A stretch of 32,000 nucleotides of DNA. It comes from Limnohabitans sp. 15K (GTDB taxonomy: Bacteria > Pseudomonadota > Gammaproteobacteria > Burkholderiales > Burkholderiaceae_C). The translations under genes and the position numbers were made by a program. This document shows positions 9,121 through 25,947 of the stretch, piece after piece. How positions within the stretch are numbered: position 1 is the stretch's first letter; every line of letters starts with the position of its first letter. The notes below the pieces were generated by a model that saw only the letters and a program-made list of their open reading frames with translations, had not been told where the DNA came from and searched no databases. The stretch lies in NCBI RefSeq assembly GCF_002778285.1, contig NZ_NESM01000001.1, positions 110,529-142,528 on the forward strand, read 5' to 3'.

Positions 9121-9319
9121 GTTCGGGGCATGTTAACGGTGCGTGTCGCCAAGATGCGTCACTTTCGCGGCCCCAGAGACGCCGAAAAATCGAGAAATAC
9201 TTTTAATTTCGAGGATTTTTATGGATTTTCATCAAAATCGTCTGAAACATCCCCAATTGGGGGTGTTCTAGGGATTTGGTTTTATCGAAAATAAAAAAAT
9301 CAATATAAAAATCAATCAG

Positions 9320-9946
9320 ATGTCCGAAACCCTGAACCGCGAAATCGACAACGCCACCACCAGCGCTGAATTTTTGACCAGTTCCCAAGCCGCCAAGCGT
9401 TTGGGTTTGTCCATGGCAACGATCCAAAAGTTGGTCGACAACAATGTCTTACAAGCTTGGAAGACCTTTGGCGGACACCGCCGCATCTCGCTCGCTTCCA
9501 TCCTGAACTACCAAAGTGCCAACAATTTTTTGGATGTACCACGCCAGAGCACCGATCGCCGAGCCAAGGTGATGATGGTGATCGAGTCGCCCGAGATGAC
9601 CGCCCGACTGAAAAAAGACATCCCTCAGTGGCATCTGCCTTTGCAAGCCGCGTTTCAAGAATCCTTGACCGAAGCCCTGCTGGAACTTCTGAACGACAAG
9701 CACGATCTCTTGGTCATACAGATGAGTGGTCTGAAGAAGCAGCAAGAAAAAGTCTTGGAAATCTTGCAAAAGTTCATGAGCTCTCGGCACACCGTGGCCC
9801 ACACCCTGGTTCTGACCCAAGAAAATGAGCTCTTGCCCAGCAGCACGTCGGGCGCGCCTGTGAGCATCCAGGTGCTCAACAAAGACCTCTCACCGATGTG
9901 GCTGTCGGCCTATTTGTCAGGCTTTGTGGCGCAGCGACGGCTCTGA
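9320..9946 (+). CDS. excisionase/MerR-type HTH DNA-binding protein with a degenerate receiver-like C-terminal domain
   Basis: LTSSQAAKRLGLSMATIQKLVDNNVLQAWKTFGGHRRI is an HTH_17/excisionase-type motif. The following segment, KVMMVIESPE...DLLVIQMSG, has a receiver-like beta-alpha pattern but lacks the acidic pocket and phospho-acceptor Asp. Confidence 0.6.
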   Translation: MSETLNREIDNATTSAEFLTSSQAAKRLGLSMATIQKLVDNNVLQAWKTFGGHRRISLASILNYQSANNFLDVPRQSTDRRAKVMMVIESPEMTARLKKDIPQWHLPLQAAFQESLTEALLELLNDKHDLLVIQMSGLKKQQEKVLEILQKFMSSRHTVAHTLVLTQENELLPSSTSGAPVSIQVLNKDLSPMWLSAYLSGFVAQRRL

Positions 9947-9959
9947 GTACATCTGCCAC

Positions 9960-10871
9960 TCAGATGTGGCCCCAAACCATCAAGGCGTCACGCCCTTCGG
10001 TGACCAGGTCCACCTTGGCGCCCACGGGCAGCAGCACCTTGGTTTCGACATGGCCGAAGGGCAAACCGGTGAGCACTGGCGCTTTGATCTGGCTGCGCAG
10101 CCGCTCGACCACGGTGGCCAGCTTGAAGCCCTTGTCGTGCGTGGGCACCAGCTTGTATTTGCTGAATTGCCCGATCAACACCGCCTTTTGCTGGGCCAAC
10201 ACACCCGCAAGCAAAAGCTGCGTGAGCATGCGTTCAACGCGGTAAGGGTGCTCGCCCACGTCTTCTAAAAAAAGCACGCCGCCTTTAATTTGCGGAAAGT
10301 ACGGTGTGCCCAGCAAGGACACCAACACCGACAAGTTGCCGCCCCACAGGGGCGCGTCTTTCACCAGCACGCGGCGCTCGGCCTCGGCTTTGGGCAGTTG
10401 CCAGCCTGTGCCTTCGCCTTGCTCCAACAGCAGGTCGTCAAAACAGGCTTGCATGATGTCGTCGGGCTCCTCTTCTGAGCCAAAGTCTTCACCCAGCGCA
10501 GGGCCTTGCCAGCTGATGCGGCCAGTCTTGGCGTACACCGCTTGGTTGAAGGCGGTGAAATCACTCAAGCCCACAAACTGCATGCCGCCATCAATCGCTT
10601 TGGCGATCTGTTTGTAGGGCAGCGCGGGCAGGATGCGCGTGAGGCCGTAGCCGCCGCGCGAGATGAGGGCCACATCTGCACCGCTGGCGGCAGCGCGGGT
10701 GATGGCAGCGATGCGCGTGGCGTCGTCGCCTGCAAAGCGCATGTGGGTGTCCAAAGCCGATTCGTCCACTTCCACTTCGTGGCCTTGGGCTTTGAGGCGT
10801 TTGATGCCGCGACGAAAAGCGGCTTTGTCGCGCACAGCGCTGGAAGGAGAAAAAATGTAGATGTGGGCCAT
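9960..10871 (-). CDS. ldcA: LD-carboxypeptidase (peptidase S66, muramoyltetrapeptide carboxypeptidase)
   Basis: MAHIYIFSPSS...ISRGGYGLTRIL...GLSDFTAF (Ser nucleophile context)...GHV. The start is set to ATG 10871. The ORF extension to 11084 overlaps the upstream gene and looks like GC-rich read-through. Confidence 0.8.
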   Translation of the reverse strand: MAHIYIFSPSSAVRDKAAFRRGIKRLKAQGHEVEVDESALDTHMRFAGDDATRIAAITRAAASGADVALISRGGYGLTRILPALPYKQIAKAIDGGMQFVGLSDFTAFNQAVYAKTGRISWQGPALGEDFGSEEEPDDIMQACFDDLLLEQGEGTGWQLPKAEAERRVLVKDAPLWGGNLSVLVSLLGTPYFPQIKGGVLFLEDVGEHPYRVERMLTQLLLAGVLAQQKAVLIGQFSKYKLVPTHDKGFKLATVVERLRSQIKAPVLTGLPFGHVETKVLLPVGAKVDLVTEGRDALMVWGHI

Positions 10872-10885
10872 GCGGGTGTTCTTGA

Positions 10886-12876
<1,991 letters not shown>

Positions 12877-12980
12877 GGCGATGAATGTACCAAACCAAGG
12901 TTGTGCGAGTTGGTACACGAACGGTTGAATGGATCGAAAATCACTTGACGTTTAACGCATGTCGTTATACGCTTCGCAAC

Positions 12981-13259
12981 ATGATCCAGTCGTTTCGATG
13001 CAAAGACACCCATGCATTGTTTGCAGGTCAAACAGTTGCTCGGTTCGTCAACTTCGGCAAAGTGGCCGAACGCAAACTGGTCATGTTGCACCGATCGGTT
13101 CGACTAGAAGATTTGAGAATACCCCCGAACAACCGGCTCGAAGCGCTCAAAGGCAATCGCAGTGGTCAATTCAGCATCCGCATCAATGACCAGTGGCGCA
13201 TTTGCTTCCGATTTGAAAACGGCCATACGTTCGATGTTGAGATAGTGGACTATCACTGA
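12981..13259 (+). CDS. higB: type II toxin, HigB/RelE-family (plasmid maintenance system killer)
   Basis: The 92-aa MIQSFRCKDTHALFAGQ...RLEALKGNRSGQFSIRINDQWRICFRFENGHTFDVEIVDYH is the classic HigB-type pattern. It sits directly upstream of a HigA-like HTH gene. Confidence 0.85.
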   Translation: MIQSFRCKDTHALFAGQTVARFVNFGKVAERKLVMLHRSVRLEDLRIPPNNRLEALKGNRSGQFSIRINDQWRICFRFENGHTFDVEIVDYH

Positions 13260-13270
13260 AAGGAGTTGAG

Positions 13271-13612
13271 ATGAAAGTTGAAGATGCCACCCCAGCCTAC
13301 CTCGTTCCAGTCAACGGCATGCGCCCCATTCATCCTGGCGAAGTGCTGCGGGAAGAGTTTTTGACGCCCTACCAACTCACGGCACATGCCCTCTCAATGG
13401 CGCTGCAAATACCCGCCCCGCGAATCAACGACATCGTGCGCGAAAAACGCGCCATCACCGTGGACACCGCCTTACGTTTAGCCAAGTTTTTTGGCAACAG
13501 CGCCGAATTCTGGATGGGCTTGCAAACCGACTTTGACATGGCCGTGGCGCGTCAGTCGATGCAAGATGCACTGGACAGGATTCGGGAATATCAGCCCGCA
13601 CAAGCACAATAA
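13271..13612 (+). CDS. higA: type II antitoxin HigA (XRE-family HTH)
   Basis: IHPGEVLREEFLTPYQLTAHALSMALQIPAPRINDIVREKRAITVDTALRLAKFFGNSAEFWMGLQ is the HigA/VapI signature. AAGGAG lies upstream of the ATG. Confidence 0.85.
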   Translation: MKVEDATPAYLVPVNGMRPIHPGEVLREEFLTPYQLTAHALSMALQIPAPRINDIVREKRAITVDTALRLAKFFGNSAEFWMGLQTDFDMAVARQSMQDALDRIREYQPAQAQ

Positions 13613-13617
13613 AACAA

Positions 13618-13640
13618 AGGCACCCGAGGGTGCCTTTTTT
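13618..13640. terminator. rho-independent, probably bidirectional, terminator
   Basis: The stem is AGGCAC/GTGCCT with loop CCGAG-like, followed by TTTTTT on the + strand and TTTGTTTT on the - strand. It immediately abuts the guaA-3'-end relic at 13641. Confidence 0.65.
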
Positions 13641-13656
13641 GTCATTCCCACTCAAT
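13641..13656. repeat. attL-like core (relic copy of the guaA 3' end)
   Basis: GTCATTCCCACTCAAT has reverse complement ATT GAG TGG GAA TGA, which reads I E W E stop. It matches 22791-22806 at 14/16 positions. Confidence 0.75.
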
Positions 13657-13830
13657 ACATACACAGGCAAAAACCCTAATAAAATCAACAACTTGCATCT
13701 ACTGATTTTGTGCGTGTAAGTTTTGTGTGAGTTTCGCAGTTAATCAGACACTCAACAAGGCATGCTTAAAGTGTTGAAAATCATTGCTTAAGCAGGAATA
13801 TGGATACACGTCGTGTAGCAATTATAGAAG

Positions 13831-14079
13831 TCAAATTCGCCTCACATCACAAAACCAAATTTTTGACTCATAACCATTCCAAGTTCCATACTGGATAGTA
13901 TCACCTGATTTTAATAAAAATAAATTTTTCAGGGTTAGAGGATATGAATTTTCCCAATTAGTTAAGTTCATTTTCCTGTAACTTCCGTCATCAAGCAACA
14001 AGATAATTTCATTGTCTCTGATGTAAAAACCATAAAAAATTGCTTTATTCCATGTGACGTCACCTAAAATATGTGTCAT
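13831..14079 (-). CDS. hypothetical small protein (82 aa)
   Basis: The ORF lies 6 nt downstream of the secreted 192-aa ORF on the same strand. It has island-type AT-rich codon usage and no recognisable motif. Confidence 0.4.
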   Translation of the reverse strand: MTHILGDVTWNKAIFYGFYIRDNEIILLLDDGSYRKMNLTNWENSYPLTLKNLFLLKSGDTIQYGTWNGYESKIWFCDVRRI

Positions 14080-14085
14080 AGTAAA

Positions 14086-14664
14086 TCAAAATAAAATTTT
14101 CTTTGAGTCTTTAACACACTTGCCTTCAACCTCAAGATTCACATACATATCACGAACTCTAGTAGGCAGCAAATCGTTAAGCCAACTACTAAAGCCGTAT
14201 ATTGTATGACTCCAAGAAAAACTTCCATCAACCCTATCGAGCACTATAAACCTGCGTGTATAAGAATATAAGCTTCGTTCAATGGGGTATTTTTCATCAT
14301 CTTTGAAATTTTTATAGCGTTCACGAGTGTAGCTACCACGATAATATGTATCCTTTACCTCTAAACCACCATACTCAAACAAATGGTCATTGCTTGGATC
14401 AGAATAAACAGAAGGTATGTTTTTAAACTCGTAATCATTATTAACCGTGATAATTCCGTCAGCTATTGTAACAACTAACGTCATGGGCTTGATTTTTACG
14501 AACTTATCAAGCTCATTTTTAGGGATGTTTATATTAATAGATGGACCAACCTTAGCAGCACCTTCACAACGAAGGTAAATTTTATCTTGTCCTAGTACGG
14601 AGGTACTTGCCAAAGTACAAAGAGAGACAATGAGAAGGGTTAGATGAGACTTAAATTTGAGCAT
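14086..14664 (-). CDS. hypothetical exported protein (192 aa)
   Basis: The N-terminal signal peptide is MLKFKSHLTLLIVSLCTLASTSVLG/QD. The mature part is rich in Tyr/Asp/Lys. I recognise no family. Confidence 0.55.
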   Translation of the reverse strand: MLKFKSHLTLLIVSLCTLASTSVLGQDKIYLRCEGAAKVGPSININIPKNELDKFVKIKPMTLVVTIADGIITVNNDYEFKNIPSVYSDPSNDHLFEYGGLEVKDTYYRGSYTRERYKNFKDDEKYPIERSLYSYTRRFIVLDRVDGSFSWSHTIYGFSSWLNDLLPTRVRDMYVNLEVEGKCVKDSKKILF

Positions 14665-14677
14665 AACAGCAGCCGTT

Positions 14678-14706
14678 TTGACATGTAGGTTGGTTGCTTA
14701 TATGAT
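14678..14706 (+). promoter_or_regulatory. sigma70-type promoter for the H-NS-like gene
   Basis: TTGACA (14678-14683), an exact 17-nt spacer, then TATGAT (14701-14706). TAAGGAG follows 7 nt before ATG 14755. Confidence 0.5.
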
Positions 14707-14754
14707 ATGGAGGGAGTTACCAATTGTCAATCTCAGCACCTAAGGAGCCCCTCA

Positions 14755-14985
14755 ATGATGTCACGTGTAGACGAAATCAACGCACAAATCGCCAAGCTGG
14801 AAGCTGAACGCACCTCTGCTATGAAAGCAGAACGTGCAAACGTGCTTGCGAAGATGAAAGCTGACATCAAGCTGTATGGCTTCAAAACAACAGACTTCAA
14901 AGGTGTCTTGTTGACACGTGCTAAACGTAGCCCCAACGGTACACGTGCGGCTAAGAAGGCTGCGACTAAGAAGTCAACAAAGTGA
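14755..14985 (+). CDS. truncated H-NS-family protein (oligomerisation domain plus basic tail, no canonical DNA-binding domain)
   Basis: MMSRVDEINAQIAKLEAERTSAMKAERANVLAKMKADIKLYGFKTTDFKG matches the N-terminal coiled-coil/dimerisation pattern of betaproteobacterial H-NS-like proteins. The ORF ends 26 aa later in a Lys/Ala-rich tail without the TWxGRGRxPxW-type motif. Confidence 0.55.
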   Translation: MMSRVDEINAQIAKLEAERTSAMKAERANVLAKMKADIKLYGFKTTDFKGVLLTRAKRSPNGTRAAKKAATKKSTK

Positions 14986-15019
14986 ATTTTTCCATTTACT
15001 GTTGTTGTTGAGGGATATT

Positions 15020-15361
15020 ATGCAAAGCTACTATTCAGCACAAGTTTGGAATAAACAATCAGTAAAGTTGCCTTACACCTGTAAAACTGCAAAGCCCTCT
15101 GACTGGGAACAGGTATCAAATGTACCTGTAATTCACGTCATAGACGCGATGTATAGAAATTCAACCGTAAGCGGAACTTTTGTAATTTCCCCCTTTGTTT
15201 TAGTTCCCATATCACTAAATCAATCAGGAAAAATTGATGTTTTATGCAGATGGTTTAATCACAGATTGGTTTCAACTGGATTATCTTTAATTATCAATCT
15301 AACAACCACAAAATTCGATCACAACTTTACAGGAAATGTGATTTCAAATATTGAAAAATGA
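15020..15361 (+). CDS. hypothetical protein (113 aa)
   Basis: ATG 15020 is preceded by GAGGGA. The longer ORF from 14918 overlaps the H-NS-like gene. No motif is recognised. Confidence 0.4.
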   Translation: MQSYYSAQVWNKQSVKLPYTCKTAKPSDWEQVSNVPVIHVIDAMYRNSTVSGTFVISPFVLVPISLNQSGKIDVLCRWFNHRLVSTGLSLIINLTTTKFDHNFTGNVISNIEK

Positions 15362-15498
15362 GAGATTTGGAATGGTTTTTCATCAATCTTGATCATCAAC
15401 AGCGGAAAAAGCAATCCAATTCATTTAAATTAGATCGAGTTCAATTCAATTTTGATGTTGCTTTTTTTACTTTTCAATCAGTTAATAAAGGACTTTAA

Positions 15499-16173
15499 AT
15501 GTCAAATTTCTGCTCTCAGTGTGGTACAGCAGTTTCAGAAAATAACTCTGCAAATTGTGTTAACTGCGGAAAGCCCCTAAGCGTAAACTCTGAAAGCTCA
15601 AAAAATGATTCAATAAATGAGGCAAAAGATAAATTATTTAATTTTGCAAAGAGTATCAAAGATGCATCAATTAAAGCAAGCCAAGACTTAAAATCTGATG
15701 AAACTAAATCAAAGATAAAAAATTTTACAGATCGAGCTCAGAGTTTTGCGTCAGAAAAAACAAAAACTATTAAAGAAGATTTTAACAAAATCAACGAAGC
15801 AAGAAAGGCAGCTATAATTGAAGTCAACGATATAGATTCAAAATCGAAGATTGAGACAACCAAAAAATTCACATTTTCTTTCTGGTCTAAATTAACTGGA
15901 AATCAAAAAGGAATATTAATTGGATCTTGTGCGGTATTAATTTTATTAATAACGCAATTTGGAGATGATATAAATTCAGATGCCAGAAAGACTGCCAGCT
16001 ATATTTGTGTTATAGATAATTATAAAAAAATGGATGAATTATCATTAGGGAAATATATGGACGAGGCAAGTGAATGGATGAAAAAAATGCGAATCAAATA
16101 CTCGGACCCGAGAAAATTTAGCGAATACTCATCTGCCGTTGTTAATGCCCAGAAAAAAACTTGCGGCTTCTAA
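15499..16173 (+). CDS. zinc-ribbon domain membrane protein
   Basis: The N-terminus has CSQC-x11-CVNC (four-Cys zinc ribbon), followed by a Lys/Ser-rich probable coiled region and one TM helix (ILIGSCAVLILLITQF). AAAGGA lies upstream of the ATG. Confidence 0.6.
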   Translation: MSNFCSQCGTAVSENNSANCVNCGKPLSVNSESSKNDSINEAKDKLFNFAKSIKDASIKASQDLKSDETKSKIKNFTDRAQSFASEKTKTIKEDFNKINEARKAAIIEVNDIDSKSKIETTKKFTFSFWSKLTGNQKGILIGSCAVLILLITQFGDDINSDARKTASYICVIDNYKKMDELSLGKYMDEASEWMKKMRIKYSDPRKFSEYSSAVVNAQKKTCGF

Positions 16174-16190
16174 TATTTACAAGGGAATAT

Positions 16191-16340
16191 ATGTTTGATG
16201 TATTTTTTGGAATTATTCTTGCGTTTGGTTTCATTTATTTAGTTGGAAATTTTAAAAACTTCTCACCAGCAACAAGAGCACTAATTGGAGCAATAGCTGG
16301 TGCTTCATTTATGATATATATGCTTAAGAGTTTTACATGA
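16191..16340 (+). CDS. possible 49-aa two-TM micro-protein (below the ORF-track cutoff)
   Basis: ATG 16191 is preceded by AAGGGA. The product is MFDVFFGIILAFGFIYLVGNFKNFSPATRALIGAIAGASFMIYMLKSFT, with two hydrophobic helices. Confidence 0.35.
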   Translation: MFDVFFGIILAFGFIYLVGNFKNFSPATRALIGAIAGASFMIYMLKSFT

Positions 16341-16347
16341 TATTTCT

Positions 16348-16461
16348 TTAAGCCAACTCAATCGCTTTGCGTTTCATTGCGTCATTGACGTCAATGTATG
16401 CCTGTGTAGTTGAGATATTCGCGTGCCTTGCGATGCTTTGTAACACTCTAACGCTATCACC
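16348..16461 (-). pseudogene. 3'-terminal relic of a tyrosine recombinase gene (last 37 codons plus stop)
   Basis: The relic encodes GDSVRVLQSIARHANISTTQAYIDVNDAMKRKAIELA-stop. By hand alignment it is 96/114 nt and 35/37 aa identical to 17629-17742, the end of the intact recombinase. The frame breaks upstream (stop codon, similarity decays by about 16470). Confidence 0.75.
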
Positions 16462-16536
16462 TATTTACAACACCAAACTGTCTTGCCTTTGAGTCATAAC
16501 AAAAAACTTATAACGCAGCCTTATCTTCGTATTGCC

Positions 16537-17625
16537 ATGAAATATTTTCGAATCACATCAATATGTTTTTTTATTACATATCTTTTATGCGCTTCACATA
16601 TTGCCAATGCATTTTGGGGCAGTGATTATGACGAACCTCCTCCGATAATTCGCACTGAACCACCAAACGCTCAAGAAATTAAAAATTTGAAATTTGGCAA
16701 TAAAGCACTCAATGAACAAGTAATAAGGTTTGGGTTAGCGATTCATACACCTTTAATTCCAGATTGGAGTGAAAAAAAATCTGGAAAGCTTCTTGCAAGC
16801 TGGAATCCTAATAATCAAAATGGGAAAAACCCAACACTTGTTATACAGCATGGCGGTGTTGGTGGACCAGGCGCAACAGACTACGGGCATGCGCGATGGT
16901 TCCTTGCTCAAGGTTTTAATGTTCTAGTTCTTGATAGCTTTTGGAGTCGAGGTTTTATAGCAAACTGGCGAAGAATTGAAGCAAGTGTCAGCGAACATGG
17001 TAATGCGTTTTCGACACTGGGAGCCAATACTCGTGCTAGGGACGCATTTGCGGCAGCTCGATGGCTACGGGAGCAACCGCAAGTTGATACAAATCGTATA
17101 TTTCTAATAGGCGGGAGTCAAGGCGGCTGGAGCGTTTTACGAGCATTTACAGACGAAAAATCAATTACAGAAAATTATAAAGAATTATTTCGTGCTGGAA
17201 TTTCAATATATCCTGCTTGTTGGAGCTGGCAACGCACTCCAGGCAATCACGGCAAAAACGCCACTCAGAATTTAAATCCAAAATTAGGTCCATTTTATGC
17301 TCCAGTTTTTTTGATTTCAGCAGAACTAGAGCCGCCAGGTACTGCCACTGACATTAATTCTTGCAACCCAAATATCGTTAATTGGGCACACAAGCATTTA
17401 AGACTAGCAGAAACCACTCATGCATTTGACTCAGAAACACCTCCAGAAAAACCAGTTAACAGTTGCTGGTACAGCAACAATCCACATTGGTGTACAGCAT
17501 CTGGTGGGCGCGATGCATTAACAAGAAATTGCATTGGTGCACCTAAAGCTGACTTCTGCTCAGATATTGAAGTAACAAAAAAAGTAAGAAGCGAAATGCT
17601 TAATTTCTTAAATTCATTTAAATAA
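16537..17625 (+). CDS. secreted alpha/beta-fold serine hydrolase (esterase/lipase/dienelactone-hydrolase-like)
   Basis: The signal peptide is MKYFRITSICFFITYLLCASHIANA. The nucleophile elbow is IGGSQGGW. The C-terminal part is Cys-rich. The track ORF begins with TTG at 16483, and ATG 16537 gives the signal peptide at the N-terminus. Confidence 0.7.
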   Translation: MKYFRITSICFFITYLLCASHIANAFWGSDYDEPPPIIRTEPPNAQEIKNLKFGNKALNEQVIRFGLAIHTPLIPDWSEKKSGKLLASWNPNNQNGKNPTLVIQHGGVGGPGATDYGHARWFLAQGFNVLVLDSFWSRGFIANWRRIEASVSEHGNAFSTLGANTRARDAFAAARWLREQPQVDTNRIFLIGGSQGGWSVLRAFTDEKSITENYKELFRAGISIYPACWSWQRTPGNHGKNATQNLNPKLGPFYAPVFLISAELEPPGTATDINSCNPNIVNWAHKHLRLAETTHAFDSETPPEKPVNSCWYSNNPHWCTASGGRDALTRNCIGAPKADFCSDIEVTKKVRSEMLNFLNSFK

Positions 17626-17628
17626 TAT

Positions 17629-18204
17629 TTAAACTAACTCAATTGCCTTGCGTTTCATAGCGTCATTGACGTCAATGTAGGCTTGGGTTGTACTGATATT
17701 CGCGTGCCTCGCGATGCTTTGCAACACCCTAACGCTTACGCCTTTATCTGCCAAATTGGTTATTAGCGTACGTCTTGGGCTGTGACTGGAAGCACCCTCA
17801 ATACCTACGCTCTTAAACAAGTGATGGAAGAATTGGCAAAGCGTGTTGCTGTTCCAGCCATCTTGTGGACGCTTCTGTGAATAGAACAGTTTGTCTGTGA
17901 GTGCTTTTGGCGGTATTGATTTGACGTAAGCTTGTAGCTCTTTGCGTAGCTTGTCGCTGACAAATACAGTGCCTGCTTTGCTGCCCTTTGTCTGTTCTGG
18001 CGTTAAGCGTATTTCAGCCCTAATCTTGCCCTCCCCGTCAATCACGTCCTCATAACGCAAAGCCGCGCACTCCTTAACACGAAGTCCTGCGTAGTACATC
18101 GTCAACAACATCGCACGATTACGCAGGCTGTGCTTGCGTGTAGCTACGTAATCCAGCACACGACGAATTTCTTGGGCAGTTAGTGTTTTTGCTTGCTTGG
18201 ACAT
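17629..18204 (-). CDS. small tyrosine recombinase, catalytic domain only (191 aa)
   Basis: AGLRVKE (Arg I), HSPRRT (H-x-x-R) and ARHANISTTQAYID (His and catalytic Tyr). AGGAGA lies 6 nt before ATG 18204. There is no N-terminal core-binding domain. Confidence 0.85.
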   Translation of the reverse strand: MSKQAKTLTAQEIRRVLDYVATRKHSLRNRAMLLTMYYAGLRVKECAALRYEDVIDGEGKIRAEIRLTPEQTKGSKAGTVFVSDKLRKELQAYVKSIPPKALTDKLFYSQKRPQDGWNSNTLCQFFHHLFKSVGIEGASSHSPRRTLITNLADKGVSVRVLQSIARHANISTTQAYIDVNDAMKRKAIELV

Positions 18205-18340
18205 CAATGCTCTCCTAAATGTAAGCTTTTCAATGTCTAAAGCATAAATTCTTTGTTTCTTAATTCCTACCTGTTTTTGGCTTTGTTGGTTCAAGTTGTT
18301 TTCCTTAATGATTTCAACGACTTAGCGTTTGAATGCGAAA

Positions 18341-18370
18341 AACCAAAGCTAATAGTAAAAAGCTTTGGTT
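18341..18370. terminator. 10-bp perfect stem hairpin, terminator-like in both orientations
   Basis: AACCAAAGCT, loop AATAGTAAAA, then AGCTTTGGTT. The + strand continues CTTTATTTAT and the - strand continues TTTTTCG. Confidence 0.45.
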
Positions 18371-18733
18371 CTTTATTTATGGAAAATATTGTGGGATTTA
18401 AGCGACTAAGCTTGCTTACGCTATACAAGCTCTACACGCTGTTTTTCACTGTGCCAGCTACCCAATGCTTCGCTCAGTGCTTTCAAGCGTTTGTAGCTTG
18501 TTTTTGCGTATCAGTTCTGCCCTACTGCTTTTGATTTGCTTTGTAGCCAAACAAATATGATGCGTACTGCTCATTATTTGAGTGTTTACTATAGTACTTT
18601 AGTTAAGTTTCATTGTTTGTTTGTGTGTTTGATTGCTTGTTTGATGTTTGTTTTAGACATAGCTACGCCATTAAGCACATTGCTGTGCTTTCAACCATCA
18701 ACCGCAAGCGTCACTTTGGACAGGAATGCTTAA

Positions 18734-19318
18734 CTACGGTAGGTAAAGATTTTTCATATCTTTACCGTCAAGTTTTTTTGTAATGTATGTGAGCCAACCC
18801 TCGTCAATCAAGTCGAGTTTGTATCTGTATTTTTCAGCCAAACTATTTGCTTCAGCGTCATAGTTTGGATTTGCAATTTCAAAGTCACCGCTCAATTCAA
18901 GTGCTTTTTTTACTGCTCTAACGAAATCTTTAAGCGGAACTTTTTCTGGCCTACGAATGGCAAAGTGAGCGTGTAAATCAATCAATTCTTGTTCACCCTC
19001 TGTCACCATCACAATGTCCAAACGCTTGTTAAAACGCTTGTAAGCTTGCTTGAATGTGAGCCTGTTTAGAAGCTCTACAAACCTATTGCTGGCGCTGACA
19101 AGCTCACTGCTGTTTAAGTGACGTAGTACCTGCGGGTTTTTCATCTCATAGCGAACTGATTTCTGCTTGTGATGCACCTTTTTGGGCATCAGCGTCAAAC
19201 CCATATCAAAACGCTGTTCGCAGCCCTTGCCAAGCCAATCTGCAAGCACCTGCCTGCGTGACAGCCTGTCATAGCCCTTTTGCTGGCATCTCTCCTGTAG
19301 TTCCTGTAATTTGCTCAT
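18734..19318 (-). CDS. YagK/YfjJ (inovirus gpII-like) family candidate, possible HUH nuclease/replication initiator
   Basis: The product from ATG 19318 is 194 aa. RFDMGLTL (compare RFDLHFP in YagK), LHAHFAI (u-H-u-H-u-u-u) and LTYITKK (YxxK) are in the order and spacing expected for HUH proteins. The track ORF extension to 19525 overlaps the divergent gene. Confidence 0.45.
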   Translation of the reverse strand: MSKLQELQERCQQKGYDRLSRRQVLADWLGKGCEQRFDMGLTLMPKKVHHKQKSVRYEMKNPQVLRHLNSSELVSASNRFVELLNRLTFKQAYKRFNKRLDIVMVTEGEQELIDLHAHFAIRRPEKVPLKDFVRAVKKALELSGDFEIANPNYDAEANSLAEKYRYKLDLIDEGWLTYITKKLDGKDMKNLYLP

Positions 19319-19420
19319 ACGTTTATTTATACAAACCAAAGAAAAGGAGATAGTTTTTTCAGGTTGTCCTATAGACATTTTGGTTATATAGTTTAGTTTT
19401 AACAACCAAAAAGGTGATAT

Positions 19421-19861
19421 ATGACAGCCATTGCAAAGCTTAAGCTGGTATCCAGCAAGAAAGAGCGTAACGTTAGTCCAGTCGTAGCTCGCAGAAACAA
19501 ACTTGCAGGAAAAATTGATGAGCAATTGCTGTTTGCTACTGCACAGCGAGATGGACAGATTTATGCTCCAAAACGGCTAAAGAACGTCATTGACAAAGCA
19601 ACTGGTGAACGAAAAACAGTTGAAGCGACAAAGCGTATTAAAGAATGGTACTGGACGAACAGTACAGGCAAAATCCATCTGTCTGTTCGCTACGGAAGCA
19701 AAACACTTGAGTTGGCTAAAGGCAAGAACGCTATTGAATTGAACTCTGGTGATGAATTGCTTGCGACACTGGCAACGCTGAAAGAAGCTGTTATTGCAGG
19801 CGAATTAGATGATGCCATCGCTCAAGCAAGCGACAAACTGAAAGCAGGATTCACCAAATAA
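19421..19861 (+). CDS. conserved hypothetical protein (146 aa)
   Basis: AAGGTGA lies upstream of the ATG. The pattern SPVVARRNKL...YAPKRL...RIKEWYW...VRYGSKTLELAKGKNAIE...AGELD resembles a hypothetical family I recall from plasmids and islands. I cannot verify the family name. Confidence 0.55.
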   Translation: MTAIAKLKLVSSKKERNVSPVVARRNKLAGKIDEQLLFATAQRDGQIYAPKRLKNVIDKATGERKTVEATKRIKEWYWTNSTGKIHLSVRYGSKTLELAKGKNAIELNSGDELLATLATLKEAVIAGELDDAIAQASDKLKAGFTK

Positions 19862-19882
19862 AGAGATTTTAAAATTACAAAT

Positions 19883-19932
19883 AGCTCCATTTGAGATTAC
19901 TGATAAGTAATTTTGAATGGAGCTTTCTTATG
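19883..19932 (+). terminator. long hairpin (about 19 bp including G-U pairs, GAUA loop) followed by a T-rich tract
   Basis: AGCTCCAT-TTGAG-ATTACT-GATA-AGTAAT-TTTGA-ATGGAGCT, then TTCTTAT. It starts 22 nt after the stop of the 146-aa gene. The right arm contains the GGAG that would serve ATG 19930. Confidence 0.45.
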
Positions 19933-20118
19933 ACTATAAATGAACTTAAAGGTATCAAACCAATTGGACCTATGTCGCCTGAAAAGGCACGAATTGAAGC
20001 ACTCAAAAGAACGAAAGATACGGCAGCTAAAAACTTAAAGGCAGAGAGAGAACGTCAAAAACTCGCAAAAGCGAGAGACACCGTTTCTGCTCTCGCTTTT
20101 AAGTCAATCAAGCTTTGA
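19930..20118 (+). CDS. hypothetical small basic protein (62 aa)
   Basis: ATG 19930 has GGAG 8 nt upstream, but that SD is buried in the hairpin. The product is Lys/Arg/Ala-rich and probably helical. Confidence 0.3.
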   Translation: MTINELKGIKPIGPMSPEKARIEALKRTKDTAAKNLKAERERQKLAKARDTVSALAFKSIKL

Positions 20119-20230
20119 TGTAGGCACCATACAAGCTGTCGTTTTGTTTTCCGTTTGCGACACGGTTTGTCTGCCTATTTTAACGCCGCTGTAGGGCTGC
20201 TTTGACGTGTTTATTGGTGCCATTAAGCGA

Positions 20231-21322
20231 TTACTTAAGTGGAATTTTAAGGAAACCACCCCAGTCTGATATGAGCGCGCCTTCAGACTCAATCATCCAT
20301 CGCATAGATGTAAATTTATAACTTTTTCGAGTTGGGTCCACCCAATCTTTATTCTCGTAAATTACTTCAGAATTTTTACCACATATCTTTTGGATGAAAA
20401 CACCTCTGTACCAAATTGCTCTATTGCCTTTTTCTCCGCCAGTCCGCATTACATACAAACAGTTGTCATTTTTCGACAGTATAAAATCCAAAACATTGCC
20501 AGCGCCAGATACGGGCGGGATAGTTAACCCGCCAAAATTTGCGAACTCATTTTTACCATTATTAAAATATATTGTTGTGGGCGTTTCCCACTCATGTGCG
20601 CCAGATATAACGTCGAACTTTCCATCACTGTTCACATCTATTAGTTCAATTGAAAATGCACGTTTAATTTGACTTAATGTCCTGTCATATTTGAACTTTC
20701 CATCTCCCAAGTTAATATAGAGTTTGGGGCTATTCATTGTACCTACTAGCAAATCAGGAAATCCATCTCCGTTAAAATCCTCACTTGCACCCCCATGATA
20801 AAAATCTACATCGTCGTGCAAAACTTGAAAATCATATTCATTGGAAGATTTACTCAATAAAATCTTCATCTTTTCACCTGGAAATGGCATTGCATCATAT
20901 CCCTGACACATAAATGCAAAATCAATTACATTGTCATTATTAAAATCAGCGGAAACTATTTTTCGAGCATGGATACATGTCTCTGCTTTGTAATTTATTT
21001 TCACATCTGCTTTTACCCACTCTGAATTATTCATTACATAAAAATTTACTATTCCAGATTTTGCTTGTTGCAATGTGTGATTATGCGTTTGATACCCATG
21101 CTCATTTGCAAGTAAGCCATTATTGCCATCTGCATATTTAAAAAAGGCTCTTGCCTCCGCCAATAATGGAGTACGCCCCCATGAATCAAGAGGAAATGTT
21201 TCAGAATAAAAAGGTGGATGTTTGGCGTTCTGATAGGAGCTTATTTTGTCGAATGAATTAGCATTCGTACAATTCAAATAAACCACCAAAAACAAGAAAA
21301 TCAACTTTGTAAAATTAGTCAT
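20231..21322 (-). CDS. secreted FG-GAP/VCBS-repeat (beta-propeller) protein
   Basis: The signal peptide is MTNFTKLIFLFLVVYLNCTNA. Repeated Ca-binding-type motifs are DFNNDNVIDFAF, DFNGDGFPDLLVG and DVNSDGKFDVISG. AGAGG lies upstream of the ATG. Confidence 0.7.
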   Translation of the reverse strand: MTNFTKLIFLFLVVYLNCTNANSFDKISSYQNAKHPPFYSETFPLDSWGRTPLLAEARAFFKYADGNNGLLANEHGYQTHNHTLQQAKSGIVNFYVMNNSEWVKADVKINYKAETCIHARKIVSADFNNDNVIDFAFMCQGYDAMPFPGEKMKILLSKSSNEYDFQVLHDDVDFYHGGASEDFNGDGFPDLLVGTMNSPKLYINLGDGKFKYDRTLSQIKRAFSIELIDVNSDGKFDVISGAHEWETPTTIYFNNGKNEFANFGGLTIPPVSGAGNVLDFILSKNDNCLYVMRTGGEKGNRAIWYRGVFIQKICGKNSEVIYENKDWVDPTRKSYKFTSMRWMIESEGALISDWGGFLKIPLK

Positions 21323-21348
21323 TGTTTGCCTCTTTCATTGATTGACGT

Positions 21349-22632
21349 TTACTTGGGAATCAACATCCCGTCTTTGTACTCATAATCTGCCAAAGCATTG
21401 CTAATCATCTTCGCTTCTGTTGTATGGTAATAAGTCTTCTCAATTTGCGAGATGCTTGTACCGCACATCTCTGCTACTGCCGCAGGTGGCAAGTTACTGT
21501 TGACACGTTTGGTAATGAAGTAATGCCTAAAGCTGTATGGCACTAAGTCTCTATTTTCTGTGTGTTTAATTTCTGCCAGCTCAATAATTTTGTCAAAGTG
21601 GTAGCCAATTGAGCGTGGCGTAATACAGCTTTCACCATTAAGCCTAAAAATTAAAGAGTTTGCAAATTTAGCTTTTTTGTCCTCGCCTTCGTATTCATCT
21701 GCAAAGCGTTTGTATTGAAGCTTAAATAGTCTGTCAAAGTAATCCAAATCTTTAATTACAAATCTTCGTGTCTTTAAGACTTTGCTTGTTTCCGCACGTA
21801 CAGTTATTCTTACTAAATTGAAGTCAACTCCGTCTTTTCCACCAACGTTGTGCTCGAATTCTGTAATGTCTTTCCAGCGTAGTTGTAATTGCTCGCCTCT
21901 GCGTAATCCACTAAGTAAGCTAATCATCAAATAGTAGCCAGTAATTGCCTTTATTAGATTTCCGCTTTCATCGATTTGCTTCTCTGCTTCATCAATGTAC
22001 TTGTCAAGCTCGTTACTAATGTCGCGCACTTCATCGTCTGTAAACGTTGCACGTCGATTTTCATCAAGTCCTTTGTCGATACGCTTTAATTTCTTAAAGT
22101 CGAAGCCATCAATGTTTGTTTCTTTGTGCTTATGAAGCCAAGCAATCATTGCATTTATGGTGCTTTGTTCATTCTCAACAGTAGTCTGACTAATCTTTAT
22201 GTTTTTCTTTGTCTTTGTTCTTTTGTAGCCGTAATCTTCGCAATCCGTTCGCTCTAATTCCTTAAGCTTTACGTCTTTGCCAATAAAGTTAAGCCAATGA
22301 TTTAGATGTGTGCTGATTGTTTTGTATCTGCCAACGACAATGTGTGTGCCAATTTCTTTCTTTTTGTATTCCAAAAACATCTCAACACCCATCTTAGTGG
22401 TGATTGAAAAATAGCTTTTGCCTTGCTTCTCCATCACCTTAAGCTCGTAGTAATGGCTCTCAGCTTTGTCGATAGCTGTGCTTTTGCTTCGTGTTTTTAG
22501 ACTGAAACGGGCGTATTTGTGTTCGTTGGGCAGCCACATACGCATCTGCCAAAACTCGCCTCGTTTGTACAGAACGGCGTTGTCAAACAGCGGAATTTCG
22601 TCGTCGCTAAATTGCTTTTTTTTGAGCGTCAT
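21349..22632 (-). CDS. int: tyrosine-type site-specific integrase of the island
   Basis: LSGLRRGEQLQLRW (Arg I), YSFRHYFITK (H-x-x-R) and SQIEKTYYH (catalytic Tyr). The gene is adjacent to the att core at guaA. The track start 22668 is TTG, and the first ATG is at 22632. Confidence 0.9.
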   Translation of the reverse strand: MTLKKKQFSDDEIPLFDNAVLYKRGEFWQMRMWLPNEHKYARFSLKTRSKSTAIDKAESHYYELKVMEKQGKSYFSITTKMGVEMFLEYKKKEIGTHIVVGRYKTISTHLNHWLNFIGKDVKLKELERTDCEDYGYKRTKTKKNIKISQTTVENEQSTINAMIAWLHKHKETNIDGFDFKKLKRIDKGLDENRRATFTDDEVRDISNELDKYIDEAEKQIDESGNLIKAITGYYLMISLLSGLRRGEQLQLRWKDITEFEHNVGGKDGVDFNLVRITVRAETSKVLKTRRFVIKDLDYFDRLFKLQYKRFADEYEGEDKKAKFANSLIFRLNGESCITPRSIGYHFDKIIELAEIKHTENRDLVPYSFRHYFITKRVNSNLPPAAVAEMCGTSISQIEKTYYHTTEAKMISNALADYEYKDGMLIPK

Positions 22633-22680
22633 AAAGCTTTGGGTAACTACAGTTTTGAGTAGCCGCAACGCTGTGCGACT

Positions 22681-22782
22681 CTTTGTGTAACTGTAAACCC
22701 AAAAGCGTTTAAAAGCAACGACTTAGCGTGTCGCGTGAAACTTTTGTGTAAGCTGAAAACCTATATAAATCAACAACTTAGC
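22681..22782 (+). promoter_or_regulatory. two imperfect tandem units upstream of int (candidate arm-type integrase/RDF binding sites and int promoter region)
   Basis: Unit 1 is CTTTGTGTAACTGTAAACC..AGCAACGACTTAGCGT (22681-22729). Unit 2 is CTTTTGTGTAAGCTGAAAACC..ATCAACAACTTAGC (22741-22782). Confidence 0.45.
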
Positions 22783-22790
22783 TCAAAAAA

Positions 22791-22806
22791 GTCACTCCCA
22801 CTCGAT
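22791..22806. repeat. attR-like core overlapping the guaA stop codon
   Basis: GTCACTCCCACTCGAT has reverse complement ATC GAG TGG GAG TGA, the true end of guaA. It is a direct repeat of 13641-13656. Confidence 0.75.
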
Positions 22807-24405
22807 CGTTGCCGGTGGTTTTGAGCTCACGTCGTATGTGACTCGGTTGATGCCGCGCACCTCGTTGATGATACGCCCCGACACTTTCTTGAGCAGCGCA
22901 TAAGGCAACTCAGCCCAGTCGGCGGTCATGAAGTCGCTGGTTTGCACAGCGCGCAGGGCCACGACGTAGTCGTAGGTGCGCCCGTCGCCCATCACGCCCA
23001 CGCTTTTCACGGGCAAGAACACCGTGAAAGCCTGGCTGGTCAGGTCGTACCAGGTCTTGCCCGATTCGTCCGTGAAGTTGCGCAGCTCTTCGATGAAGAT
23101 CGCGTCGGCACGGCGCAGCAAGTCGGCGTATTCTTTTTTCACTTCGCCCAAAATGCGCACGCCCAAACCGGGGCCTGGGAAGGGATGGCGGTAAACCATC
23201 TCGCGGGGCAAACCCAGCGCCACGCCGAGTTCGCGCACTTCGTCTTTGAAGAGTTCGCGCAGCGGCTCCAGCAGTTTCAAGCCCAATTGCTCGGGCAAAC
23301 CGCCCACGTTGTGGTGGCTCTTGATGGTGACGGCTTTCTTGCTCTTGGCGCCGCCCGACTCGATCACGTCGGGGTAAATCGTGCCTTGGGCCAGGAATGT
23401 CGCGCCTTTGTGGCCGCCGTCGCCTGCTTTCAATTTCGCAGCCTGCTCTTTGAACACGTCCACAAACAAGCCGCCAATGATCTTGCGCTTGGCTTCAGGC
23501 TCGCTCACGCCCGCCAGTTTGCCGAGGAACAAGTCGCTGGCATCGACGCGGATGACTTTCGCGTGCAGCTTGCCCACGAACATCTCCATGACCATGTCAC
23601 CTTCATTGAGCCGCAGCAGACCGTGGTCCACAAACACGCAGGTCAGCTTGTCGCCGATAGCGCGGTGGATCAAAGCAGCAGCCACCGACGAATCGACGCC
23701 GCCCGACAAGCCGAGGATGACTTCTTCGTCACCCACTTGCTCTCGGATTTTGGCCACGGCTTCTTCGATGTAGTCGCCCATGATCCAGTCTTGGCGGGCC
23801 TGGCATATGTCGAGCACAAAACGGTTGAGCAGCGCCTGGCCTTGCACGGTGTGTGTGACTTCGGGGTGGAACTGCACCGCATAAAAACGGCGGGCCTCGT
23901 CGGCCATGCCTGCAATCGGGCAAGCCGGGGTCGAGGCCATGACCTTGAAACCGTCTGGCATCTGGGTGACCTTGTCGCCGTGGCTCATCCAGACCTTGAG
24001 CATGCCGTGGCCTTCGGCCGTGGCGAAGTCTTCAATGCCTTTGAGCAGTTCAGTGTGGCCGTGGGCGCGGACTTCGGCGTAGCCAAACTCGCGCGTGGTG
24101 CCTGCCTCGACCTTGCCGCCGAGTTGCTGGGCCATGGTTTGCATGCCGTAGCAAATGCCCAGCACGGGAATGTCCAGTTCAAACACAGCATCGGGGGCTC
24201 GGTCGTCAACTTCGTAGACGCTGGCATGGCTGCCCGACAGGATCACGCCTTTGAGGTTGCCGTCCTTGGCGTATTCACGCACCCAATCGCTGCTCACATC
24301 GCAGGGATGAACTTCGCAGAACACATGGGCCTCACGCACACGACGGGCGATGAGCTGGGTGACTTGCGAGCCGAAGTCGAGAATCAGGATCTTGGAGTGC
24401 TGCAT
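22792..24405 (-). CDS. guaA: GMP synthase (glutamine-hydrolysing)
   Basis: The 537-aa protein has the GATase domain (GICYGMQ, catalytic Cys), the ATP-PPase P-loop (LSGGVDSSV) and the canonical C-terminus PPATIEWE. Confidence 0.97.

Positions 24406-24474: not shown

Positions 24475-25947
<1,473 letters not shown>

Follow-up and report, generated by a model that had tools for sequence, protein, structure and literature searches.

An AT-rich island at the 3′ end of guaA in Limnohabitans sp. 15K and the probable family of integrative elements to which it belongs

The 3′ end of guaA, the gene for GMP synthase, is a known target of integration, used by GIsul2, epsilon15, CMGI-3 and several integrative mobilizable elements (IMEs), and the general mechanism is conventional. 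GIsul2 is a 15.4-kb resistance island (Nigro & Hall 2011) that enters guaA at 5′-GAGTGGGA-3′, and the activity of its integrase has been shown (PMC9376610). The 3′ flank of the gene is also targeted by the epsilon15/CMGI-3 cluster, within the IntSXT subgroup of tyrosine recombinases (PMC8138268), and the IMEs found there include ATE-1 of Trueperella pyogenes and the IncP island of Brucella suis (PMC5704250). We have analyzed a 9.15-kb AT-rich island that lies within the last codons of guaA in Limnohabitans sp. 15K, in a 32-kb stretch of DNA that we term the window. We conclude that this island (13641–22806) is very probably an integrated, small, AT-rich, site-specific element of a guaA-targeting family, the backbone of which comprises an integrase (Int), a DUF6641 protein, a putative HUH Rep-like protein of 194 aa and a small tyrosine recombinase of 191 aa. 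We infer that replication or transfer by the HUH protein would follow excision. An island of this general kind had been proposed in an earlier note on the same DNA, and its claims are considered below together with the results that bear on them.

The resemblance to GIsul2 is a resemblance of target. Both islands occupy the guaA 3′ end, and the proposed core GAGTGGGA is identical; in both, a tyrosine integrase gene lies beside one att site, in company with replication-related genes and a second recombinase (resG in GIsul2). The differences lie in the proteins. A BLASTP comparison of the window Int with that of GIsul2 (taken from pAB3) gave E = 6.2, and the integrases of GIsul2 and epsilon15 are composed of Arm-DNA-bind_3, Phage_int_M and Phage_integrase domains whereas the window Int matches PF00589 only. 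The island lacks alpA, IncQ-type repA/repC, trbJKL, toxin-antitoxin, ars and CR2-sul2 genes, and resG is also absent; here the 194-aa HUH protein would replicate the element, and the second recombinase is a tyrosine enzyme reduced to its catalytic domain. The earlier note had named GIsul2-type elements as users of this target; the present island has target and core in common with them but is not of their type, in view of its integrase, the architecture of that protein and the missing alpA, repA/C and trb genes. Judged by sequence, the island integrates like GIsul2 but belongs to another family, and the most reasonable interpretation of the common core is that both lineages converged on a coding sequence that hardly varies.

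Similar distinctions apply to the other systems. The window Int is not in the epsilon15/CMGI-3 cluster (BLASTP against epsilon15 Int, E = 0.61), and that cluster consists of phages and large islands whereas the family described here has elements of 5–13 kb without phage or conjugation genes. In tblastn searches epsilon15 Int matches 1681 plasmid records and the window Int none: among 72,556 plasmids, pAB3 included, there was no match to the window Int at E ≤ 1e-5, and at E ≤ 1 only XerC-like noise. One plasmid match of epsilon15 Int, H23, was considered as a possible GIsul2 and rejected, since it is a BREX island. ATE-1 and the Brucella IncP island share with the present element a tyrosine integrase, the guaA 3′ end and the character of small non-conjugative islands, but by the listing in the review they carry toxin-antitoxin or RepA/antitoxin modules, not an HUH protein and a miniature recombinase (PMC5704250). 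The tycheposons of marine picocyanobacteria have tRNA or tmRNA targets and primase/helicase hallmark genes (bioRxiv 10.1101/2020.12.28.424599). They are similar in design: a site-specific tyrosine integrase faces inward from one end, the replication module is small and optional, and the niche or defense cargo can be exchanged. Further similarities are the accumulation of decayed remnants at the target and the frequency of the elements in planktonic bacteria. They differ in that the target here is guaA and the module is an HUH Rep with a mini recombinase, with no primase or helicase in the island.

The ends of the island and the empty site

The base composition of the window changes abruptly at the island. 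Measured in 500-nt intervals, the GC content is 0.56–0.65 up to 13000 and 0.59–0.63 from 23001 onward, and falls to 0.31–0.43 between 13501 and 22500; the transitional intervals 13001–13500 and 22501–23000 have values of 0.526 and 0.506, respectively. The segment between the end repeats has 38.4% GC overall. This is the discontinuity (from about 0.60) that the earlier note had described at 13641–22790.

The island is bounded by two 16-nt direct repeats, GTCATTCCCACTCAAT at the left (attL) and GTCACTCCCACTCGAT at the right (attR; coordinates of all features are collected in Table 1). They differ at two positions (13645/22795 and 13654/22804), both changes being synonymous on the minus strand, on which either repeat is translated as I-E-W-E-stop. 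Between the mismatches lies an identical octamer, TCCCACTC. The chance expectation for a given 16-mer with no more than two mismatches is 0.0026 per 10 kb. The right repeat closes the 537-aa open reading frame (ORF) of guaA (22792–24405, minus strand), after which comes guaB (24475–25944). The left repeat is an orphan that abuts a bidirectional terminator hairpin, and the same hairpin is found directly 3′ of the guaA stop codon in metagenome contigs L051, L053, L054 and L058–L061 (L numbers designate the loci examined). The repeats, their translation and the assignment of the right copy as the real end of guaA and of the left copy as an orphan at the original terminator are as the earlier note had them. 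There are no tRNA genes in the 32-kb window, and a search of 13000–23200 with Rfam gave nothing above noise.

The search for an empty site that had been suggested was made by scanning metagenome contigs with the PaiB-like protein of the left flank, where higA-higB is followed by a gene for this flavin mononucleotide (FMN)-binding protein and then by a tadA-hydrolase fusion. The scan gave 80 loci, 53 of them spanning guaA to paiB, and in 27 of the 53 the gap between these genes is no more than 48 bp. In about five more, among them L051, L053, L075, L077 and L096, the gap contains only higA-higB, the flank order of the window. An exact-protein search with HigA for sister strains gave no match. 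When L053 was compared with the artificially joined flanks of the island, a single collinear alignment of 5265 bp with 87.9% identity ran straight over the junction. The empty attB of L054, L059–L061 and L075 is ATCGAGTGGGAATGA, which joins the outer halves of the window attR and attL, and the commonest empty attB reads ATC-GAGTGGGA-ATGA. Larger gaps between guaA and paiB (e.g., L091) were considered as family elements and rejected, their contents being host-like (GNAT, HupE and an fn3 protein).

Comparison with the empty site allows the two ends to be dissected. The part of attL that lies 3′ of the octamer is the same as in the empty attB, and in attR the element supplies the last base of the final Glu codon together with the stop codon. 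Distal copies of the guaA end were located in nine other loci, and all begin with the element-type ATT. Since attR consists of the left half of attB and a right half contributed by the element, and attL is the reverse, attP should read ATT-GAGTGGGA-GTGA, with strand exchange within the octamer. The octamer had been put forward as a plausible crossover segment in the earlier note; TCCCACTC, which is GAGTGGGA on the minus strand, equals the published GIsul2 core. As shown by comparison of occupied with empty sites, integration occurred at attB within GAGTGGGA, the end of guaA was regenerated by the element, and occupancy of the site is variable. The empty sites, the structure of the att sites and the recurrence of the arrangement in a family together uphold the proposal of a site-specific integrative island in the guaA 3′ end.

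The ORF of int begins 123 nt from the guaA-proximal repeat, and its identification as a tyrosine integrase, also made in the earlier note, is supported by matches to PF00589 (weak, E = 6.7e-9, 36 bits) and phrog_1 (E = 8.8e-24) and by its fold; no NCBIfam model was matched. The 1717 homologues found at E ≤ 0.001 are mostly of 425–430 aa and align from residue 13; almost all come from environmental assemblies, and those with names are from Limnohabitans and Polynucleobacter. In an AlphaFold2 model (predicted local distance difference test score, pLDDT, of 75) a four-stranded sheet with a helix (residues 24–81) is followed by a helical core-binding domain (91–180) and the catalytic domain. Foldseek ranked XerH, Tn1549 Int, XerA and the whole of lambda Int highest for this model, and the N-terminal sheet is plausibly an arm-binding domain.

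A short sequence, motif A (TAAGTYGTTGAWWT), is present in four copies in the 32 kb, all on the minus strand; none of 100 shuffled sequences reached four. The core-proximal copy lies approximately 11 nt past the guaA stop codon and is kept in most family members, and that upstream of the small recombinase gene recurs in six other loci. In a circularized element each of the four copies would sit upstream of a recombinase gene. Motif A may represent either Int arm sites or operators. The additional N-terminal β-sheet domain of Int, together with the presence of motif A on both arms, suggests heterobivalent binding of arm and core of the lambda type.

There is a third GAGTGGGA at 20586–20593 (minus strand), in the same orientation as the att cores, lying inside the FG-GAP gene where it encodes H-E-W-E. 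It was rejected as an att site, as it lacks a neighboring motif A and as three matches were reached in 2 of 100 shuffles, consistent with chance. In principle it could act as a secondary site, since GIsul2 has a functional internal third att site.

The element family and its backbone

Scanning one genome per GTDB species with the integrase profile gave 47 loci. In 42 of these a guaA end encoding IEWE-stop is located a short distance upstream of the int match, so that the integrase is found beside guaA in other taxa, where the earlier note had suggested that it be sought. The adjacent guaA genes are 53–99% identical to that of the window. The records are labeled Limnohabitans, Polynucleobacter, Rhodocyclaceae, Nitrosomonas, Gallionellaceae, Methylococcaceae, Ca. 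Thiosymbion, Desulfuromusa, Nitrospira and alphaproteobacterial metagenome-assembled genomes (MAGs), and the family has thus been seen in Beta-, Gamma- and Alphaproteobacteria, in Desulfuromusa and in a Nitrospira MAG. One locus (L012) is labeled as an 'uncultured Bifidobacterium sp.' MAG, yet its guaA and guaB are 73–74% identical to the betaproteobacterial genes of the window, and it is probably mis-binned.

Distal guaA-end repeats bound elements of 0.66–12.8 kb in nine further loci. The elements delimited in this way have lengths of 6.9 (Rim47), 8.6, 10.4, 4.8 and 12.8 kb, and there are scars of 0.66–2 kb, including a 1.56-kb remnant in Limnohabitans T6-20 that is followed by paiB and tadA. 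Scars with guaA-end repeats or arm-like motifs were noted at L040:9838–11830, L050:8604–9309, L034:4457–5135 and L047:9832–11407; in the first of these, from Jezberella, the second repeat is followed by another arm motif, suggesting tandem remnants. Only N-terminal fragments of int are present beside guaA in about 15 loci, indicating that decay in place is common. Two other integrated members with distal repeats are L132 (7.2 kb) and L133 (9.4 kb, 37% GC). The latter (L133:6905–16341) lies at a guaA of 54% GC and carries as cargo a 920-aa MmeI-type restriction-modification enzyme, so other members of the family do carry defense genes.

The int genes of the family have 36–50% GC and the host guaA genes 47–67%, with no relation between the two (r = 0.11). 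AT-richness is thus a trait of the element family, and says nothing about the last donor; the donor of lower GC content that had been proposed in the earlier note is not required. Nor is the cargo unlike that of any island, as had been thought, since Limnohabitans sp. Rim47 carries most of it with 90–98% amino acid identity.

Nucleotide comparison indicates a composite origin of the window copy. By blastn, 21347–23001 is 96% identical to a Limnohabitans Rim8 MAG (L001), while 17629–21546 and 13642–14972 are approximately 92% identical to Rim47 (L014), the integrase of which is 66% identical in protein sequence. The remaining segment is private with respect to Rim47. It contains a 116-nt relic of the 3′ end of a second small-recombinase gene, which is 91% identical to the Rim47 recombinase gene and 84% identical to that of the window itself. 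This copy is a mosaic, in which the int module resembles that of L001, the backbone and cargo resemble those of Rim47, and 2.7 kb are a private insert. On the simplest reading, family members at the same site exchanged modules by homologous recombination, and a tandem pair, formed by fusion with a second family member, then collapsed and left the relic behind. The backbone is Int, the DUF6641 protein, the 194-aa HUH Rep-like protein and the 191-aa recombinase, and the cargo is replaceable. The DUF6641 gene adjoins int in 17 of the 47 loci, and in L132–L134. In the literature searched we found no description of this integrase family or of this backbone.

The 194-aa protein can be assigned with moderate confidence, from motifs and a predicted fold, as an HUH Rep-like nuclease. 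Its start was taken as Met70 because the 263-aa ORF that extends to 19525 runs into the DUF6641 gene. The three motifs that characterize HUH endonucleases, GLTLMPxK, EG..D.H.H and YITK, are invariant in 26 homologues; in the window protein D114-x-H116-x-H118-F-A and Y178-I-T-K181 are in canonical order, preceded by GLTLMP. An exhaustive profile search with this protein found 347 relatives, the distant ones of which match PF23343 (REP_ORF2-G2P); one of these, P0241, scored 31.2 bits, above the curated cut-off of 27.8. A structural model (mean pLDDT 75) gave 24 Foldseek matches in BFVD with E ≤ 1e-3 and template modeling (TM) scores of 0.38–0.48, and those that are named are replication initiators of microvirus and inovirus type, ORF2/G2P-domain proteins and a Vibrio phage Rep. 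The protein resembles the rolling-circle initiators of single-stranded DNA (ssDNA) phages and plasmids (PF23343; Rep of Microviridae and Inoviridae) in its three motifs (GLTLMP, HxH and YxxK) and in predicted fold, and these features support the Rep-like gene of the earlier note. It differs in size, the microvirus initiators among the fold matches having 263–573 aa, and in its setting, within a chromosomal island and beside a tyrosine recombinase. The ORF in the corresponding position of L002 was considered as a relative and rejected, the hhalign comparison not being significant.

The small recombinase is the second recombinase of the earlier note. Its ORF was listed as 17629–18294 from a TTG codon; alignment places the real start at the ATG at 18204, behind AGGAGA. 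The protein matches the C-terminal (catalytic) halves alone of the XerA, XerD and XerC models. The HUH and small-recombinase genes are side by side in L133 and L135. The L135 island (7668–16000) has a different integrase (393 aa, with SAM-like N-terminal domains), is situated beside yggX and mutY instead of guaA, and has GmrSD and an EcoRI-type methylase as its cargo. From the presence of the pair with another integrase in L135, it behaves as a portable module between integrative elements.

The two genes are separated by a conserved spacer of 440 bp. Directly after the HUH stop codon there is a block AGCATTCCTGYCC..GTGACGCTTGC (also given as AGCATTCCTGTCC..GTGACGCTTGC), followed in turn by a hairpin (18673–18690), AATTGGCGWAGCT and inverted GTAGCT/AGCTAC motifs (18415–18510) that include an imperfect inverted repeat (18425–18440/18486–18501); a further hairpin is present at 18338–18373. 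Among elements that are approximately 90% identical the stem of the first hairpin shows compensatory changes (ACA/TGT in the window, GTA/TAC in L001 and ATA/TAT in L014), and its loops in the three members, GCAA, GCGA and GAAA, are GNRA-like. The role of this hairpin may be that of an origin or nick site, or else that of a terminator. A hairpin was noted at the same place after the HUH stop codon in L001, L014, L041, L012, L006, L036, L133 and L135. The conservation of the spacer far exceeds the needs of a promoter, and it could hold a Rep origin, a resolution site, or a terminator and promoter. In the conserved block that precedes the small recombinase gene no covariation was detected by RNAalifold, and a stem drawn by eye in that block was dropped because its register shifts between members.

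Proposed mechanism and alternative explanations

The data suggest the following course of events. Int would have recombined an attP (...GTATGT ATT-GAGTGGGA-GTGA CTTTTTT...) with an attB made up of the last four codons and stop codon of guaA (ATC-GAGTGGGA-ATGA), with strand exchange inside the 8-bp GAGTGGGA, presumably binding core and arm sites in the heterobivalent manner of lambda. As I-E-W-E-stop is also encoded in attP, guaA stays intact, and its original end, now displaced, would remain as attL against the old terminator. Excision should be the reverse reaction, catalyzed by Int with a directionality factor. The predicted attP junction of the excised circle is ...TTGATTTTATTAGGGTTTTTGCCTGTGTATGT ATTGAGTGGGAGTGA CTTTTTTGAGCTAAGTTGTTGATTT..., and the attB restored by excision should be ...CCACCGGCAACG ATCGAGTGGGAATGA CAAAAAAGGCACCC.... 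In the circle the HUH protein would nick a site in the conserved spacer, leading to rolling-circle copying or to single-strand transfer, and the small recombinase would resolve multimers at the spacer.

A number of observations weigh against this account. The alleles of the empty attB vary (ATT/ATC, GAA/GAG and TGA/TAA), so the argument from hybrid att sites is consistent with the data and not uniquely forced by them. The nearest empty-site contigs are 88–91% identical in DNA, approximately, and come from other species, so that the comparison is made between species rather than between occupied and empty genomes of one. No excised circle or attP junction was observed. When 2.9 million IMG/VR contigs were scanned with the Int profile, no relatives of Int emerged, and hence neither a sign of a virion nor a circular contig. 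The contig L132 (7.9 kb), in which Int is 99% identical, was considered as a circle and rejected, as it is integrated in guaA. No excisionase was recognized in the island. With regard to the HUH protein, it has no Pfam match above threshold itself, a PDB sequence search with its profile gave no match, and a Foldseek search of the PDB with its model gave the adeno-associated virus (AAV) Rep nuclease and ISDra2 TnpA at non-significant values (E ≥ 0.0045). The assignment draws on the motifs, the transitive profile link and a model of mean pLDDT 75, and the gene was found by hidden Markov model (HMM) search in just 10 of 48 loci. The roles given to the HUH protein, the small recombinase, the DUF6641 protein and motif A are putative, taken from sequence and models.

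The alternative that survives best is an IME in which the HUH protein would serve as a relaxase on an origin of transfer (oriT) in the spacer, riding on a co-resident conjugative system without replication. There is precedent in streptococcal IMEs, in which HUH Rep-type proteins are reported to act as relaxases (PMC7563843). The covarying hairpin with its conserved 3′ flank resembles the layout of an oriT, and spread across phyla needs some route of transfer. Against this, searches with Pfam and NCBIfam found no coupling protein, type IV secretion system gene or known relaxase family, in fold the HUH protein comes closest to replication initiators of viruses rather than to relaxases of conjugation, and the GNRA-like loops in three members also fit a plain RNA terminator. 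On balance we think it unlikely that the element moves in this way.

It is improbable that the island is an immobile relic, acquired once and inherited vertically, with int and the att sites no longer in use. The failure to find a circle in the IMG/VR scan or in L132 would be explained, and remnants beside guaA are common, both as int fragments and as the scars in L034, L040, L047 and L050. Yet the genes for Int, the small recombinase and the HUH protein are all complete in length, this copy retains the HUH motifs that do not vary across the family alignment, and both att cores and all the arm motifs are intact. Moreover, at this site close relatives have other members of the family, remnants or no insertion at all, and the exchange of modules at 92–96% nucleotide identity suggests recent traffic.

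We consider it very improbable that the island is a phage satellite, akin to a phage-inducible chromosomal island (PICI), or a decayed prophage, packaged by a helper and using the Rep-like gene for induction-dependent replication. Its size and layout, with int pointing inward from one end and a small gene for replication, resemble those of a satellite, the guaA 3′ end is a site for SaPIs as well, there is a phrog_31551 match for the DUF6641 protein (E = 1.2e-23), and the Rep fold is like that of ssDNA-phage initiators. However, no capsid, terminase, portal, packaging-redirection, repressor, AlpA or primase-replicase genes were found with Pfam, PHROGs or NCBIfam, and the lack of integrase relatives in IMG/VR is matched by a single weak partial match on tblastn of Int against 50,697 phage records. 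It is hardly credible that the island, with unusual cargo, is of the GIsul2 type or belongs to the epsilon15/CMGI-3 cluster, for while the target and 8-bp core are the same and other elements of the guaA 3′ end are on record, the BLASTP values, the domain architecture, the lack of a plasmid match and the absence of the GIsul2 backbone all speak against it.

We therefore retain the integrated member of a separate guaA-targeting family as the best explanation. More tentatively, and with a good chance of being wrong in a proposal of this breadth, we suggest that the family is an undescribed and very widespread one of miniature AT-rich integrative elements of freshwater and sediment. Its specificity for GAGTGGGA would have evolved independently of GIsul2 and epsilon15, and it would carry niche and defense genes from phylum to phylum. 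Its maintenance would depend on a self-contained module of two genes, for an HUH Rep and for a tyrosine recombinase reduced to the catalytic domain, that is usable with other integrases, and the family would be a functional counterpart of the marine tycheposons. Three aspects appear novel. The first is that the same 8-bp core is used by a second integrase lineage, in which no similarity to the known one could be detected, and this convergent choice of target is a clean natural case for asking why the stop region of guaA suits landing. The combination of DUF6641 protein, 194-aa HUH Rep and recombinase lacking a core-binding domain is the second. The third is the size of the family, judged by its integrase homologues, with different cargo across isolates of Limnohabitans and Polynucleobacter and MAGs that are labeled Nitrospira, Desulfuromusa, Gamma- and Alphaproteobacteria; the cargo here includes hydrolases and FG-GAP proteins that are read as exported, and elsewhere MmeI-type restriction-modification genes. 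Conjugative elements are scarce in freshwater bacterioplankton, and the element, if active, is a plausible vehicle of gene flow there. A simple rule for annotation follows, to search downstream of guaA for ATT-GAGTGGGA repeats, which may be of use in mobile-element research and in freshwater microbial ecology.

Cargo, flanking genes and other features

Searches of the island with PADLOC, PHROGs, Pfam and NCBIfam revealed no defense, resistance, conjugation or virion genes, in agreement with the earlier note. From their hydrophobic N-termini only, the FG-GAP protein, the hydrolase and the 192-aa protein are read as exported. The FG-GAP protein is 96% identical in Rim47, and is absent from L001. 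The earlier note had taken the ORF at 14707–14985 for a truncated H-NS. No H-NS signal was found for it in Pfam, NCBIfam (no match at E ≤ 0.01 in either) or the PDB, and the 75-aa protein is complete, since the 1250 proteins of its family are likewise of approximately 75 aa and have no Pfam domain; it is also present in L006, L014 and L041. The hairpin downstream of the DUF6641 gene has z = −4.06 (0 of 200 shuffles), and its position is kept in other loci with differing sequences; it may provide translational control or act as a terminator.

Table 1. Positions of the island features in the 32-kb window.
Feature	Position	Strand	Remarks
bidirectional terminator hairpin	13616–13637	both	outside the island; abuts attL; marks the original downstream flank
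attL, distal orphan guaA end	13641–13656	minus	reads ATT-GAGTGGGA-ATGA-C; left part element-derived, right part host-derived
crossover octamer GAGTGGGA	13646–13653 (attL); twin 22796–22803 (attR)	minus	candidate; segment identical between the mismatches
motif A, P-arm copy	13682–13695	minus	25 nt inside attL
82-aa protein	13831–14079	minus	90% identical in Rim47; weak DUF7731 match at most
192-aa protein, signal-like N-terminus	14086–14664	minus	90% identical in Rim47; weak DUF7731 match at most
75-aa coiled-coil protein, basic tail	14755–14985	plus	ORF listed as 14707–14985
private segment vs Rim47	14973–17628		hydrolase, recombinase relic, two membrane ORFs
224-aa zinc-ribbon membrane ORF	15499–16173	plus	in private segment
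59-aa membrane ORF	16161–16340	plus	in private segment
relic of second small-recombinase 3′ end, 116 nt	16347–16462		direct repeat of 17628–17743, 84% identity
alpha/beta hydrolase	16483–17625	plus	in private segment
small tyrosine recombinase, 191 aa	17629–18204	minus	backbone; catalytic domain only; PF00589 E = 2.3e-29
motif A, fourth copy	18311–18324	minus	upstream of small recombinase
conserved HUH-recombinase spacer (440 bp)	18295–18733	minus	candidate origin and/or recombination site
HUH Rep-like endonuclease, 194 aa	18734–19318	minus	backbone; putative, from motifs, transitive profile link and fold
DUF6641 protein, 146 aa	19421–19861	plus	backbone; divergent from HUH gene; PF20346 E = 7e-13, phrog_31551 E = 1.2e-23
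hairpin, 19-bp stem	19883–19924	plus	downstream of DUF6641 gene; buries GGAG before ATG 19930
62-aa ORF	19930–20118	plus	behind hairpin; no Pfam or PADLOC match
FG-GAP repeat protein, 363 aa	20231–21322	minus	PF13517 E = 1.4e-16; hydrophobic signal-like N-terminus
int, tyrosine integrase	21349–22668	minus	439-aa ORF; probable start Met13 at 22632, giving 427 aa
motif A, two P′-arm copies	22712–22725, 22767–22780	minus	between attR and int
attR, functional guaA end	22791–22806	minus	reads ATC-GAGTGGGA-GTGA-C; left part host-derived

Some features of the surrounding DNA may also be recorded. The higB-higA pair (12885–13612) is itself an insertion-deletion polymorphism, lying between the guaA terminator and paiB in L051, L053, L075, L077 and L096 and absent from the 27 contigs in which paiB comes directly after guaA. 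It is not part of the island, and its GC content of 0.53 is slightly below that of the host. There is a second, milder patch of low GC content (0.49–0.54) at 9001–10000, between genes for a major facilitator superfamily (MFS) transporter and an LD-carboxypeptidase, which holds a 208-aa ORF (9320–9946, plus strand) with an HTH_17 (excisionase/MerR-type) domain. The fusion of a TadA-like deaminase with an alpha/beta hydrolase at 10886–12292 (minus strand) is a protein of 468 aa that is 95% identical in Limnohabitans sp. T6-20 and is present in most of the metagenome relatives.

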